Part shown: in pieces, positions 45,877 through 55,611 of the stretch
Layout of the letters: every line of letters begins with the position of its first letter
Position numbering within the stretch: the stretch's first letter is position 1
DNA from: Candidatus Magasanikbacteria bacterium CG11_big_fil_rev_8_21_14_0_20_39_34
GTDB taxonomy: Bacteria; Patescibacteriota; Patescibacteriia; Magasanikbacterales; UBA922
Assembly (NCBI GenBank): GCA_002787355.1
Contig: PCWN01000007.1
Span: 248,996-312,995 of the forward strand
Direction: 5' to 3'
DNA length: 64,000 bases
The notes under the pieces: model-generated
Seen by the model: the letters and a program-made list of their open reading frames with translations, nothing else
Database searches by the model: none
What the model was told of the DNA's origin: nothing
Program-made: the position numbers and the translations under genes

Positions 45877-45923
45877 ATCTTATAAATAAAAAGGAAAGAA
45901 ATTTTTGGTTTTCTGCCGCCGCT

Positions 45924-46058
45924 TCACTCCTCCAAAAAGGCTAATAAGTATAGTTTAACATTTTTGCAGAGTTTACGCCCGCCTTTTCTCCGTCGTTTGC
46001 GTCGGCGCGAGGCGCGACGGTAACTCGGAAGTCCACTCACGCTTCGCAAGCAAATCAT
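45924..46058 (-). CDS. Tiny (44 codon) arginine/lysine-rich ORF in a GC-rich spacer; it may be a structured non-coding element instead
   Basis: It translates as MICLRSVSGLPSYRRASRRRKRRRKGGRKLCKNVKLYLLAFLEE. The ATG is 9 nt downstream of, and in frame with, the TAA stop of the NDT-like gene. The region is locally GC-rich (CGN codons or a GC hairpin CGTCGGCGCGAGGCGCGACG). It is below the ORF-track size cut-off. Confidence 0.2.
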   Translation of the reverse strand: MICLRSVSGLPSYRRASRRRKRRRKGGRKLCKNVKLYLLAFLEE

Positions 46059-46067
46059 ATTTTGTTC

Positions 46068-48332: not shown

Positions 48333-48361
48333 TTGACGAAGCCGATTAATTTTAATACAAT
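48333..48361 (+). promoter_or_regulatory. Near-consensus sigma70-type promoter (TTGACG-17 nt-TACAAT)
   Basis: TTGACG is at 48333-48338 and TACAAT at 48356-48361, with a 17-nt spacer. No protein-coding gene follows on this strand. Confidence 0.5.
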
Positions 48362-48367
48362 GAATGA

Positions 48368-48556
48368 GACCGCCTTACGTGGCGCCTGCTGTGTAACAGC
48401 CGAAAGGTGCGTGTACCAGTAGTTTCAGGCACGAGGAACTTAAAAATGCTGGGACCAGAATAGAACTTGACCTGCTATTTATAGCAGAGATAGTGATTCC
48501 CTAACCATGCGGTTTCTAGGACTGTCTCGAGATCCATTTGAGGCGGTTTTTTTTTG
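48368..48556 (+). ncRNA. Candidate sRNA of about 190 nt (identity unknown; 6S-like architecture is possible)
   Basis: It lies downstream of the promoter above. It is GC-rich relative to the genome. The 5' ACCGCCU pairs with the 3' AGGCGGU as a closing stem, followed immediately by U9. It has internal hairpins such as CUGCUAUUUAUAGCAG. No ORF is present. Confidence 0.4.
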
Positions 48557-48591
48557 CTAAAAACAAATTACTCCGACATTTTCCTAACTAG

Positions 48592-48678
48592 CGGAGAAGG
48601 CGGGATTCGAACCCGCGGTACGGTTTCCCGTACACATCCTTTCCAAGGATGCGCATTCGACCACTCTGCCACCTCTCC
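48592..48678 (-). tRNA. tRNA-Ser (anticodon GGA), class II with a long variable arm; CCA is not encoded
   Basis: It folds by hand into a cloverleaf. The acceptor stem is GGAGAGG/CTTCTCC, the anticodon stem-loop is CATCC-TTGGAAA-GGATG, the variable arm is TACGG-GAAA-CCGTA, and the T-arm is GCGGG-TTCGAAT-CCCGC. Confidence 0.9.
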
Positions 48679-48697: not shown

Positions 48698-49471
48698 TTA
48701 GGAGCTTTTCTTTTTCCTCAAAAATATCCAAACTCCCAAACAGAACAAGACTATAGAAAAATATTGCGCCGGTGTCAAGCCCAAAATACGCACGTCCGAG
48801 TAGATAAGATCCGTGGCTCTATAGAAATCAAGAAAAAATCGTACAAAACCGTAGTACATGGCCACTATTCCTGCAAAAAACCCTGTGGAAAATTTCTTTT
48901 TGCGGACAAAGAAAAAGGCAAGAGCAAGCGGAATCATGGCAAGAATTTCCATCAACGCCATGTCCAAGCGTGGTCCTCCCGGACTTTTGAGTGCTAAAAG
49001 AGAATGAGACAACGTTCCCGGATGATCATGGATAAGAAAACATCCTACTCTTCCAACAATCCAACCAAACACCGCTCCAAACGCAAAGATATCCAAAATT
49101 TCTGATAAATCCTTTTTGGAAAACGATGCTTTTTTTCTGGCGTAGTAGAGTCCACCCAAAAATGCTCCAACAAAACCTCCGTAGGAAGAAAGTCCCCCTT
49201 CCCATACTTTTATAATATCTATGGGATGAGCCAGGTAAAATGACAGATCATAAAAAAGAATATGAAAGACCCGAGAAAAAACAAGACCAAAGAGAATAGC
49301 ATAGCTTGCCATATCAATAAGTTTTTCTGCCACTTCTTTTGAAAACAGTCTTTTTGCTCTTTTATAAATAATAAAAACAGAAAGTAACATTCCAAGCGCA
49401 ACAAAAAATCCCCATACTTGAATAGGTATGGGACCCAGATGTACAACGGTAAATTGAAAGTATGGAATCAT
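48698..49471 (-). CDS. lgt: Prolipoprotein diacylglyceryl transferase
   Basis: A polytopic membrane protein with the Lgt signature region GRVGCFLIHDHPG and a typical N-terminus. Confidence 0.85.
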   Translation of the reverse strand: MIPYFQFTVVHLGPIPIQVWGFFVALGMLLSVFIIYKRAKRLFSKEVAEKLIDMASYAILFGLVFSRVFHILFYDLSFYLAHPIDIIKVWEGGLSSYGGFVGAFLGGLYYARKKASFSKKDLSEILDIFAFGAVFGWIVGRVGCFLIHDHPGTLSHSLLALKSPGGPRLDMALMEILAMIPLALAFFFVRKKKFSTGFFAGIVAMYYGFVRFFLDFYRATDLIYSDVRILGLTPAQYFSIVLFCLGVWIFLRKKKSS

Positions 49472-49477
49472 AAAAAA

Positions 49478-50824
49478 TTAGTTACTTTTCCACTCTGAAA
49501 TAACTTCAAAAATTTGTTCTTCGTTGTCTACTATCTGGTAGAGCTCATCATCTTCATCAGAAACTGTATCTACATCATGCACCAATACCTTCTTGATAAA
49601 TTTGTGAAGTGGCAACCAAAATTTATGATCCACAAGAATAACCGGACGTTTCTTTATCTTACTTGTTTGCATCAATGTTAACACCTCAAAGAGTTGGTGC
49701 AAGGTACCAAACCCTCCAGGAAAAAATATAAAGGCATCAGAAGGTGCTGTCACAATAAGTTTTCTGGTAAACGGAAATTTGAAAATAATAGAATCTGTAA
49801 GGTAAGAATTTACTTCCTTGTGGCCAGCAACTTCCATACCAATTCCAATGGATCTTCCTCCCTCATGAAAAGCTCCTCGATTTACCGCCTCTGCAATTCC
49901 ATATTTTCCTCCTGTAATAACCGTATATCCATGTTTTACCGCCAACTTTCCAACTTTGAGTGCAGACTGATAGTATGGACTTTTCTTTGGAATACTTTTT
50001 GTTCCCAAAATAGTAACATCCTTATCCAGACCACTCACAAATTCAAATCCCTGAACTAACTCTGACATGATTCTAAAAACTCGCCAGTTCACATTTTCTA
50101 AACAGTGAAAGTTATCTGCAGAGAGATCACATGTCTGATTATGTGCGTCATCATGTCCTTTAATATATTTAAAAGCTTCTTGTGCACTGTCTACCACATG
50201 CCAGCTGTTTATTTGTTCTGCGGTCATAGACCCCGCTCCCTCAATGCAACATGATTTCAAAAACTTAATAAGTGGCTTCCAGTATGATGAACCAACGAGA
50301 ATAATTGGTGATTTATTCATCATCCCCAACTCCATAAGGTCTACAACTTCAAAAAACTCATCCATGGTTCCAAATCCTCCCGGAAAATACACAAAAGCAT
50401 GCGCAGGAGACGTAAGCATTACCTTTCTGGTGAAGAAGTAGTTAAATGAAGTAGATCGAGTTACATAAGGATTCAAGACTTGTTCAAAAGGAAGCTCAAT
50501 ATTTAATCCCACAGATTGGCCCTTCCCCTCAAATGCCCCTTTGTTTGCCGCTTCCATAATCCCCGGTCCCCCTCCGGTAATAGTAGTAAAATTATTTTCC
50601 GCTAAAATTTTTCCAATTTCATAGGCTACTTTGTAATAAGATTCATCTGGATGAAATCTGGCAGAACCTAAAATAGTCACTTCATTTTTTAATTCAGAAA
50701 GAAATTGATATCCCTCCACAAATTCCGCCATGATACGAAAAATTCTCCATGATTGACGGAAATCCCCTTTTTCACGCATGATATATCCAAACCTCCTTTT
50801 ATGGTTGTATGGTTTTTTCTTCAT
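49478..50824 (-). CDS. Tandem-duplicated LOG family protein (two TIGR00730-type Rossmann domains fused)
   Basis: It has two copies of the PGGxGTxxE motif (FPGGFGTMDEFFEV and FPGGFGTLHQLFEV), each preceded by a GGGPGIMEA / TGGKYGIAEA nucleotide-binding motif. Confidence 0.75.
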   Translation of the reverse strand: MKKKPYNHKRRFGYIMREKGDFRQSWRIFRIMAEFVEGYQFLSELKNEVTILGSARFHPDESYYKVAYEIGKILAENNFTTITGGGPGIMEAANKGAFEGKGQSVGLNIELPFEQVLNPYVTRSTSFNYFFTRKVMLTSPAHAFVYFPGGFGTMDEFFEVVDLMELGMMNKSPIILVGSSYWKPLIKFLKSCCIEGAGSMTAEQINSWHVVDSAQEAFKYIKGHDDAHNQTCDLSADNFHCLENVNWRVFRIMSELVQGFEFVSGLDKDVTILGTKSIPKKSPYYQSALKVGKLAVKHGYTVITGGKYGIAEAVNRGAFHEGGRSIGIGMEVAGHKEVNSYLTDSIIFKFPFTRKLIVTAPSDAFIFFPGGFGTLHQLFEVLTLMQTSKIKKRPVILVDHKFWLPLHKFIKKVLVHDVDTVSDEDDELYQIVDNEEQIFEVISEWKSN

Positions 50825-52477: not shown

Positions 52478-52771
52478 CTATTCAAAAACTTTTTTTACTT
52501 TGAGTAATGATCCAACCTTTTCTGGAAAAGCATTTATAATTTTTTGTTGAACCGCATCATTTGGCTCTCCCACGGTATCTTCTCGTGTCACATTCATAAG
52601 CCCGGTTACCTGACAGGTTTCTTCTACATCTTCGGTATCTACTTCATTTAATATTTCAATATAATCAAAAATTACCGAAAGTTGTTCGGCATAGATTTCT
52701 TTTTCTGAGTCAGAAAGCTCAAGTCGTGCTAAAAGAGCAATCTCCTCTATTTCATGCGGAGTTAATTTCAT
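52478..52771 (-). CDS. gatC: Glutamyl/aspartyl-tRNA amidotransferase subunit C
   Basis: A 97-aa protein directly upstream of gatA with a typical GatC N-terminus (EIEEIALLARLELSDSEKE). Confidence 0.8.
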   Translation of the reverse strand: MKLTPHEIEEIALLARLELSDSEKEIYAEQLSVIFDYIEILNEVDTEDVEETCQVTGLMNVTREDTVGEPNDAVQQKIINAFPEKVGSLLKVKKVFE

Positions 52772-52869
52772 AGTGAATTTAGTCCTATTTTAATACAATG
52801 TAGCCTTCTATGCAAGTTCTCTTCTTGCTCTGAGACACTAGACATTTCTTTTTTTCTATGCTTAAATGA

Positions 52870-53040
52870 AAGAGCTATTGCCCACCACGGCAAAGAGGGG
52901 TTTCCCTGATCGTCAGGGAGTCGGCAGTCCACCAAGTTGGGGCAACCGCGAGGTCTGTGTCCAATGCCGATAAGCGCTTTCTTCCTCGGTCAAAAGCGCT
53001 TACCCTCTTGACCCAACCCCAAAAAAAGGATAAGTATGTA
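52870..53040. ncRNA. GC-rich multi-hairpin structured element of unknown function; strand unresolved
   Basis: It has consecutive perfect hairpins: UUGCC-N7-GGCAA, CCCUGA-UCG-UCAGGG, and AAGCGCUUU-N11-AAAGCGCUU. Its GC content is well above the local background. Both strands carry only short overlapping ORFs. A weak hairpin plus T8 follows at 53043-53070. Confidence 0.3.
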
Positions 53041-53089
53041 AAAAAGCCCTTAATTTAGGCTTTTTTTTGTTTTATACACAGGTCTCCTC

Positions 53090-53118
53090 TTGACAAAATA
53101 TAAAAAATGGTATATATT
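53090..53118 (+). promoter_or_regulatory. Near-consensus sigma70-type promoter (TTGACA-17 nt-TATATT)
   Basis: TTGACA is at 53090-53095 and TATATT at 53113-53118, with a 17-nt spacer. Confidence 0.5.
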
Positions 53119-53123
53119 GGCGA

Positions 53124-53357
53124 GTCGACGTCTGAAGATTCAGGTAGTTGAAGAAAACCGGAAGGACATAGAAGCCTTCAACAAACGGTATTCCGAAAAC
53201 ACCCACACCCGAATCGACGGATTCTCTCACCCTCTGACCGAGGACCACCAGTCTCGACCTTTGCCCGGGGTCACTGGTGATGGAGGGATCGTCTCGAGCT
53301 CCAAGCTCCTGACGTCGACACTCCAATAAAGAGTCTCAATAATGGGGCTTTTTTTGT
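53124..53357 (+). ncRNA. Candidate sRNA of about 230 nt (identity unknown)
   Basis: It lies downstream of the promoter above. It is GC-rich. A 5' GAGUCGACGUC pairs with a 3' GACGUCGAC-A-CUC closing stem. An internal stem is GUUGAAG...CUUCAAC. It ends in GGGGCUUUUUUU. The overlapping 79-aa ORF (53090..53329) starts at TTG inside the -35 box and is rejected as coding. Confidence 0.4.
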
Positions 53358-53421
53358 TTGTACAAAATTTTTTTGTATTGTATAAAGATTGTCTGTCATT
53401 AACTGGATTACGTGCAGGTAG

Positions 53422-53533
53422 GTAGATTGCCACGCTGTATACTCAGCTCGCAATGACAATTTGTCTCTGCCTCCGGATGACCCCCTCCTCTCCGTCATTG
53501 CGAGGAGTCCGTAGAGACGACGTGGCAATCTTC
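53422..53533. repeat. Long nested near-perfect palindrome (stem-loop of about 110 nt) immediately 3' of ligA
   Basis: The outer arms are GTAGATTGCCACG / CGTGGCAATCT(T)C. The inner arms are ACTC-ag-CTCGCAATGAC / GTCATTGCGAG-GAGT. This gives about 26 bp of pairing around a 36-nt C/U-rich loop (GTCTCTGCCTCCGGATGACCCCCTCCTCTCC). Confidence 0.5.
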
Positions 53534-53550
53534 GTGTTAGAAAAGAAATT

Positions 53551-55611
<2,061 letters not shown>

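Follow-up and report, generated by a model that had tools for sequence, protein, structure and literature searches.

A probable structured noncoding RNA gene in the ligA-gatC spacer of a narrow Magasanikbacteria lineage

What does the GC-rich island between ligA and gatC of a Magasanikbacteria genome encode: a stand-alone RNA, a small protein, or nothing with a function of its own? The question arises within a stretch of 64,000 nt, referred to as the window throughout, which has a GC content of 38%. The LigA protein encoded in it is 100% identical to one of Candidatus Magasanikbacteria bacterium CG11_big_fil_rev_8_21_14. Its host is an uncultivated member of the Patescibacteria/CPR, bacteria with tiny genomes and few recognizable regulators; the source genome comprises only about 1 Mb. 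The locus itself is a spacer of 779 nt extending from gatC (52478-52771, - strand) to ligA (53551-55605, - strand), in which the public gene calls place nothing. The order ligA, gatC, gatA on one strand is kept in nearly all of 80 Patescibacteria loci, with the ligA-gatC spacer ranging from about 80 nt to 2 kb in length. The 448-aa gene following gatA in the window (49478-50824, - strand) was assigned as a two-domain LOG/Lysine_decarbox (LDcluster4) gene with a faint DprA-like signal, based on precomputed Pfam matches on the identical gene in locus L083. As this gene is not gatB, gatB must be located elsewhere.

Close relatives were sought on protein level. Among GTDB representative genomes no LigA exceeded 67% identity to that of the window, and a search of 5.8 billion proteins revealed just two organisms closer than this, represented by a JGI contig (L081, LigA 85% identical) and a Logan contig (L082, LigA 70% identical). 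Protein searches with GatC and with a C-terminal fragment of LigA returned nothing closer than these two, and a GatC scan of genome contigs returned no relatives. On DNA level, the pattern TTTGCCCG-N(20-50)-GACACTYCAAWAAR gave 28 matches in a metagenome collection, all of them chance by blastn, the collection apparently being devoid of the source contigs; a looser pattern gave 37 matches in a viral collection, again all chance by blastn. The earlier note on this DNA had suggested looking for conserved copies in the gatC-ligA spacer of related genomes, and both relatives carry one: the same RNA at the same site and in the same orientation, on the strand opposite both genes. The L081 spacer is 78% identical to that of the window, the entire RNA included. 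In L082 the spacer measures 274 nt, and its strand opposite ligA hosts a TTGACA promoter, a closing helix, a branched GC-rich interior, a tail, and a terminator. A profile of window and L081 had its top nhmmer match among 890 kb of loci at this very spot (database-wide E = 0.16), on the tail segment equivalent to 53320-53331. Recognizable copies of the RNA were, in total, found in three genomes, i.e., the window, L081, and L082. The elements of the transcription unit and its two homologues are the following:

53090-53118, + strand: sigma-70-type promoter, TTGACA (53090-53095), 17-nt spacing, TATATT (53113-53118), 11/12 match
53124-53355, + strand: predicted RNA transcript of about 232 nt, with the 5' end deduced from the promoter and the 3' end from the U-run
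53328-53355, + strand: intrinsic terminator, hairpin at 53328-53353 with loop AAUAAU, then U7; the stem covaries
53090-53329, + strand: 79-aa ORF whose start codon is the TTG within the -35 box; not considered a gene
L081, 2559-2798, - strand: homologue, fold z = -3.96
L082, 3331-3519, - strand: homologue, fold z = -7.04

The promoter described in the earlier note, TTGACA-17-TATATT, is present and is the best + strand site of the region, being one of only four sites in the 64-kb window that match at 11/12 or better. L081 and L082 retain its CTTGACA box and its spacing to the closing helix, which begins 5-6 nt past the -10 box. The GC-rich transcript of about 230 nt that had been proposed to follow it corresponds to the predicted 232 nt, with a GC content of 51-54%, and the terminator expected at its end was found as a hairpin with U-run. 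In L082 three pairs of the terminator stem are changed on both sides while the loop is the same. The L082 hairpin is perfect, directly adjoins the stop codon of ligA, and has A- and U-runs at its sides, which would let it serve both strands. The minimum free energy of the + strand amounts to -82.6 kcal/mol (z = -3.36), compared with z = -0.97 for the reverse complement; according to this prediction, the fold is specific to the + strand, and several G-U pairs are consistent with this strand. The unit runs toward ligA, convergently with it, and away from gatC, and downstream of it the + strand holds nothing other than ligA antisense. Own promoter, intrinsic terminator, and no same-strand gene downstream are the generic marks of a stand-alone sRNA, and all were found here, with promoter and terminator retained in both L081 and L082. 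A cis-acting leader, riboswitch, or T-box of gatCAB was considered and rejected: the RNA lies on the + strand, gatC and ligA on the - strand, and the fold is + strand specific. Being on the opposite strand, the RNA is not a leader of gatC or of ligA.

The predicted secondary structure comprises a closing helix (P1), three arms (P2 to P4), and a single-stranded tail:

53124-53132, + strand: 5' strand of the closing helix P1, GUCGACGUC, pairing with 53311-53319
53311-53319, + strand: 3' strand of P1, GACGUCGAC, pairing with 53124-53132
53137-53215, + strand: arm P2, a long irregular hairpin with sub-hairpin GAAGG/CCUUC; compensatory changes compared with L081
53199-53209, + strand: C/A-rich stretch ACACCCACACC, predicted to be unpaired; identical in window and L081
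53223-53288, + strand: arm P3 of the predicted fold, pyrimidine-rich 5' CUCUC against purine-rich 3' GGAGGG, enclosing CCUC-UGACC-GAGG and an apical hairpin
53256-53272, + strand: apical hairpin of P3 with loop UUUGCCCG at 53260-53267; the loop is invariant, the stem covaries
53296-53308, + strand: P4, small hairpin GAGCU-CCA-AGCUC, overlapping the 8-mer GUCUCGAG (53291-53298)
53320-53331, + strand: single-stranded G-poor tail ACUCCAAUAAAG; GACACUYCAA is kept in L081 and L082

P1 forms the core of an inverted repeat, the longest in the spacer, with arms at 53115-53140 and 53303-53328. Of the pairing between the 5' end and a 3' segment that had been noticed from the letters alone, the 9-bp core GUCGACGUC/GACGUCGAC is conserved, whereas the GAG...CUC extension is lost in L081. 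The L082 closing helix, GUCCGAUGCA/UGCAUCGGAC, spans 9-10 bp and keeps every pair, five of which are changed on both sides. Within P2, the window and L081 differ by paired replacements, with GAAGG/CCUUC becoming GGGGG/CCCCC, GAA/UUC becoming GAG/CUC, and GUU/AAC becoming GUA/UAC. The C/A-rich stretch ACACCCACACC has a similar counterpart, CCACUCAC, in L082, and P3 is represented there by an arm ACCUUCCCA/UGGGGAGGU. The apical loop UUUGCCCG is identical in all three genomes, the stem below it changing from GACC/GGUC in the window to GAAC/GUUC in L081 and GGU/ACC in L082. The hairpin CUGACCGAGGACC (53234-53246) is identical in window and L081. P4 is kept with a different loop in L081 and is absent from L082, and the L082 tail reads GACACUUCAA. 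The architecture common to the copies is P1 with three arms, i.e., a four-way junction, followed by the G-poor tail and the terminator. As P1 begins 5-6 nt past the -10 box in all three genomes, a helix should enclose the 5' end. The base register between P1 and P2 is ambiguous, because GUCGACGUC is partly self-complementary.

When pairs predicted from the window sequence only were scored in L081, this resulted in 50 unchanged, four with a one-sided change, five compensatory, and seven broken. Under a permutation null in which the substitutions were reassigned among paired positions, on average 11.1 pairs were broken compared with a corresponding observed number of six (P = 0.002). RNAalifold on window and L081 gave 61 pairs, none broken and five compensatory, while the individual minimum-energy folds of the two sequences have 45 of about 66 pairs in common. 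Since MAFFT and RNAalifold misalign L082 when given three sequences, its helices were compared by hand and by script. Compensatory substitutions, as expected of a structured sRNA, are present at a depth of three sequences, and with a recognizable copy in three genomes only, the covariation rests on few independent events. A covariance model (R1) built from window and L081 matched only its two input sequences; with filters off it scored L082 at 6.4 bits (E about 1) amid noise, so that the family is not extendable by this model.

Taken together, the structure-keeping compensatory changes and the lack of conservation of the 79-aa ORF (see below) indicate a real structured noncoding RNA, and we consider it likely that the locus holds such a gene. 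The more specific reading, predicted with a probability of roughly 0.78, is that a noncoding RNA of about 232 nt with a stable fold is transcribed on its own from 53124-53355 (+), and that this gene belongs to a narrow Magasanikbacteria lineage and is passed on vertically in the ligA-gatC spacer.

Four other explanations of the island have to be weighed against this reading. The stop-free runs of 87-88 codons on both strands of the window spacer could be taken to encode a small protein, be it the 79-aa ORF of the + strand or one of the ORFs of 68-108 aa on the - strand. As the earlier note stated, the 79-aa ORF does start at the TTG inside the -35 box. The same note had named conservation of this ORF as a protein as the observation that would speak against an RNA, and such conservation was not found: six 1-nt indels between window and L081 fall within the ORF and shift every frame, the substitutions are spread over the codon positions at 12/13/12 and show no third-position bias, and the L081 + strand has stops in all three frames, no frame being open throughout on either strand. 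The longest open stretches in L081 cover 58 (+) and 72 (-) codons and lie in other frames. A phmmer search against 1.84 billion representative proteins yielded no real homologue of the ORF, the sole match being weak (8/22) and spurious, recurring eightfold along a repeat protein that binds peptidoglycan. Public-record gene callers called nothing in the spacer. Where a genome is AT-rich, a GC-rich island can be expected to contain long open frames, and the 79-aa ORF is an artefact of such an island; a coding function of the spacer is extremely unlikely. A second explanation links the RNA with another candidate of the window, at 48366-48556, either as a 6S-like pair binding the polymerase or as a paralogue with a common protein site. 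Both are promoter-driven, structured, and GC-rich, both measure 190-230 nt with paired ends, and the earlier note had pointed to GUCUCGAG followed by UCC in each, suggesting two paralogous sRNAs comparable to 6S-1/6S-2 pairs or a shared protein-binding site. The motif indeed exists in both RNAs, but at chance level: an 8-mer or longer is common to 36.5% of dinucleotide-shuffled pairs, and an 8-mer with a nearby 3-mer occurs in 9%. The best local alignment of the two RNAs is a 13-mer carrying the motif, with z = 2.1 and 5% of shuffles scoring as high. At the position of GUCUCGAG, L081 reads GUCUAGAG, and in L082 its hairpin is missing, this segment being deleted. Neither blastn (E <= 10) between the two candidates nor model R1 applied to 48366-48556 gave a match. 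With the motif at chance level and mutated or absent in the relatives, neither paralogy nor a shared protein-binding site is supported. As for a 6S identity, Rfam models give no 6S match at E <= 10 for either RNA. The minimum-energy and consensus folds of window, L081, and L082, with arms supported by covariation, are multi-branched and thus unlike the 6S rod of closing stem, large central bubble, and terminal stem. We therefore regard any such pair as very improbable.

The main rival holds that the act of transcription matters and not the RNA, in that a strong convergent unit with two-way terminators would uncouple ligA from gatCAB, either because the two transcription events interfere or because the RNA pairs in antisense with ligA read-through transcripts, which RNase III then cleaves. 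In the Magasanikbacteria loci examined, spacer RNA genes always lie opposite the ligA/gatC strand, which fits such a role, as do the L082 terminator that abuts the ligA stop and could end both strands, and a promoter-like site of gatC's own in the window (TTGCAT-17-TAAAAT, about 52800-52830, - strand). The interiors of the spacer RNAs are, moreover, very different between genera. Neither interference nor antisense pairing, however, requires that compensatory changes keep several internal helices and that one loop stays invariant, and several relatives with spacers of 80-130 nt and no RNA gene have the same operon layout. On this balance an effect of transcription alone appears unlikely. A mobile-element remnant or cargo, or a fortuitous GC-rich insertion devoid of function, would agree with the spacer being a variable hot spot of 80 nt to 2 kb that accommodates tRNAs, other RNAs, ORFs, and a palindromic repeat, and with the differing copy number of a neighboring element in window and L081. 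Against it, position, promoter, and structure agree across three genomes with LigA identities as low as 70%, and substitutions keep the structure. The window contains no second copy, and phage and plasmid collections gave no similar record. Such an origin is rated as very improbable.

Concerning known families, Rfam 15 at gathering threshold detected tRNA-Ser and nothing else in the whole window, and in the loci of 13 relatives only tRNAs. At E <= 10, the regions 52750-53600 and L082:3300-3620 gave terminator look-alikes only, and 48366-48556 gave such look-alikes at most. The Rfam/Infernal search recommended in the earlier note has thus assigned neither RNA to a described family. No paper on noncoding or small RNAs of Magasanikbacteria, or on 6S RNA in CPR bacteria, was found in the searchable literature. 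So far as Rfam 15 and this literature show, the RNA at 53124-53355 belongs to no described family.

The candidate at 48366-48556 (+) has features of its own. Its promoter, TTGACG-17-TACAAT, lies at 48333-48361, its closing helix doubles as terminator, and its fold reaches z = -3.1. It neighbors tRNA-Ser(GGA) (48591-48678, - strand), with a promoter TTGACA-17-TATAGT at 48750-48778 (-), about 70 nt upstream and among the four best of the window. The lgt-tRNA-Ser arrangement is kept in most Magasanikbacteria loci. In more distant relatives the site beside tRNA-Ser carries unrelated sequence; the L082 contig ends there.

Further elements were observed around the RNA. A second GC-rich island of the same spacer, at 52868-53068, possibly on the + strand, is preceded by a weak promoter-like sequence (TAGACA-17-TTAAAT, 52838-52866) and consists of a closing helix AAGAGGG/CCCUCUU, then a C-rich tail GACCCAACCCC, with a good two-way terminator at 53040-53068. 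Its strand is uncertain, the fold z-scores being -2.24 (+) and -3.07 (-). Rfam gave no match to it; its 3' part is conserved in L081, where the contig ends inside, and it is absent from L082. Ten nucleotides (52983-52992) of the 12-nt apical loop UCCUCGGUCA of a hairpin in this island are perfectly complementary to 53235-53244, i.e., to the conserved hairpin UGACCGAGGA of the RNA at 53124-53355. Judging from the sequence lengths, we estimate that chance would produce about 0.04-0.3 such matches; the L081 contig stops 6 nt before the loop. A nested palindrome (53424-53531), in which AGATTGCCACG...CGTGGCAATCT encloses CTCGCAATGAC...GTCATTGCGAG, is situated between the stop codon of ligA and the terminator of the RNA. 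The window has one copy of this palindrome and no other was found there, L081 has two in tandem (about 2190-2500), and L082 has none; the element looks like a small REP/MITE-like repeat. A GC-rich patch at 45895-46065 showed no significant structure on either strand.

In other Magasanikbacteria, the ligA-gatC spacer contains between one and three RNAs. They are promoter-driven and GC-rich, measure 95-300 nt, and are closed by a long terminal helix, behind which a G-free C/U-rich tail leads to a terminator. Located on the - strand of the respective locus, these spacer RNAs are:

L019:7007-7585, - strand: spacer RNAs in three tandem units, the middle one being a decayed copy of the L016 RNA
L016:7010-7300, - strand: spacer RNA
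L009:7007-7267, - strand: spacer RNA
L021:7019-7206, - strand: spacer RNA
L006:7019-7306, - strand: spacer RNA
L002:4256-4651, - strand: spacer RNA

None of these RNAs matched Rfam, and their interiors are not alignable to the RNA at 53124-53355. An all-against-all blastn of 38 spacers gave no link to it except a 26-nt promoter match in L017. Other spacers (L018:7055-7848, L033, L037, L038, and L044) host tRNA genes, likewise opposite ligA, several of which seem to contain insertions. The L018 tRNA looks co-transcribed with a hairpin RNA before it and a second hairpin after it, and a GC-rich membrane-protein-like ORF follows. One could propose that the spacer RNAs of L002, L006, L009, L016, L019, L021, and L017 together with the RNA described here form one fast-evolving, lineage-specific class, of which 52868-53068 is perhaps another member. 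The traits of this class would be a promoter, a terminal helix of 9-15 bp, a G-free C/U-rich tail (CACUUCC, CCCCUUC, ACUCCAA, or the like), a terminator, and a position always opposite ligA. We consider this grouping doubtful, and the RNAs may alternatively be unrelated tenants of a permissive site. If it were true, the class could represent a CPR-specific housekeeping or RNP RNA multiplying by tandem duplication, and its members might interact, as the 10-nt complementarity between 52983-52992 and 53235-53244 would suggest.

Returning to the RNA at 53124-53355 as a vertically inherited noncoding RNA gene, its conserved and highly structured nature, its consensus promoter, and its retention in a genome of about 1 Mb suggest that it matters to the cell. 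The conserved near-consensus promoter is placed such that the predicted transcript begins at, or 1-2 nt before, the 9-10 bp helix P1, from which three arms radiate in a four-way junction, with the G-poor tail and the intrinsic terminator behind. A closed 5' end, high GC content, and a strong promoter would make for an abundant, long-lived, trans-acting RNA. Loop UUUGCCCG, hairpin CUGACCGAGGACC, and the unpaired ACACCCACACC are likely contact surfaces, as they are identical in window and L081 despite a divergence of roughly 20% around them. Through these invariant, exposed elements the RNA may contact a protein, serving as its scaffold or sequestering it, or may pair with G-rich targets. Protein binding is a tentative assignment for the mode of action, and base pairing an equally tentative one. 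Within the window the complement of loop UUUGCCCG is not enriched, and unrestricted RNAduplex predictions between RNAs were uninformative. We tentatively picture a stable RNA acting in trans by way of its conserved apical loop UUUGCCCG. As a kind of object, a stand-alone bacterial sRNA is ordinary, and the more exciting 6S-like paralogous pair does not hold. The RNA at 53124-53355 nevertheless offers a concrete target for metatranscriptome work and for a covariance model as genomes of the clade appear.

Among known systems, 6S RNA (SsrS; RF00013 and related families) is an abundant stand-alone RNA of about 180-200 nt, often expressed from a strong promoter and present in two copies in some bacteria. 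The RNA described here resembles it in standing alone, in the closing stem that joins 5' and 3' end, and in its strong promoter, but differs in matching no 6S model at E <= 10, in its four-way junction, and in having no detectable second copy. RsaE/RoxS-type sRNAs are C-rich, base-pairing RNAs of Hfq-independent bacteria with a pattern of repeated UCCC loops. As in these, the exposed C-rich segments, namely ACACCCACACC, CCCUC, and ACUCC of the tail, could pair with G-rich ribosome-binding sites, and promoter and terminator are its own; unlike them, this RNA is much longer and more folded, has no UCCC-loop repeats, no target found, and no Rfam match. Y RNA and similar closed-end RNP RNAs join their ends in a long helix around a variable interior. 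Although no Rfam match to Y RNA or YrlA was obtained and the neighbors are ligA and gatC, with no adjacent Ro/Rsr gene, the present RNA shows the same long helix between 5' and 3' end, then a short pyrimidine-rich single-stranded tail with U-run, and its interior is variable as well. GC-rich intergenic islands in AT-rich genomes have been found to yield orphan structured noncoding RNAs (the GC-IGR approach of the Breaker laboratory; PMC6429828, PMC11109978). Compared with these orphans, the RNA at 53124-53355 matches none of the curated motifs in Rfam 15 and occurs in three genomes of one candidate-phylum lineage, but it has in common with them a long intergenic region of far higher GC content than the genome, which folds stably, shows covariation, and has no downstream gene associated with it.
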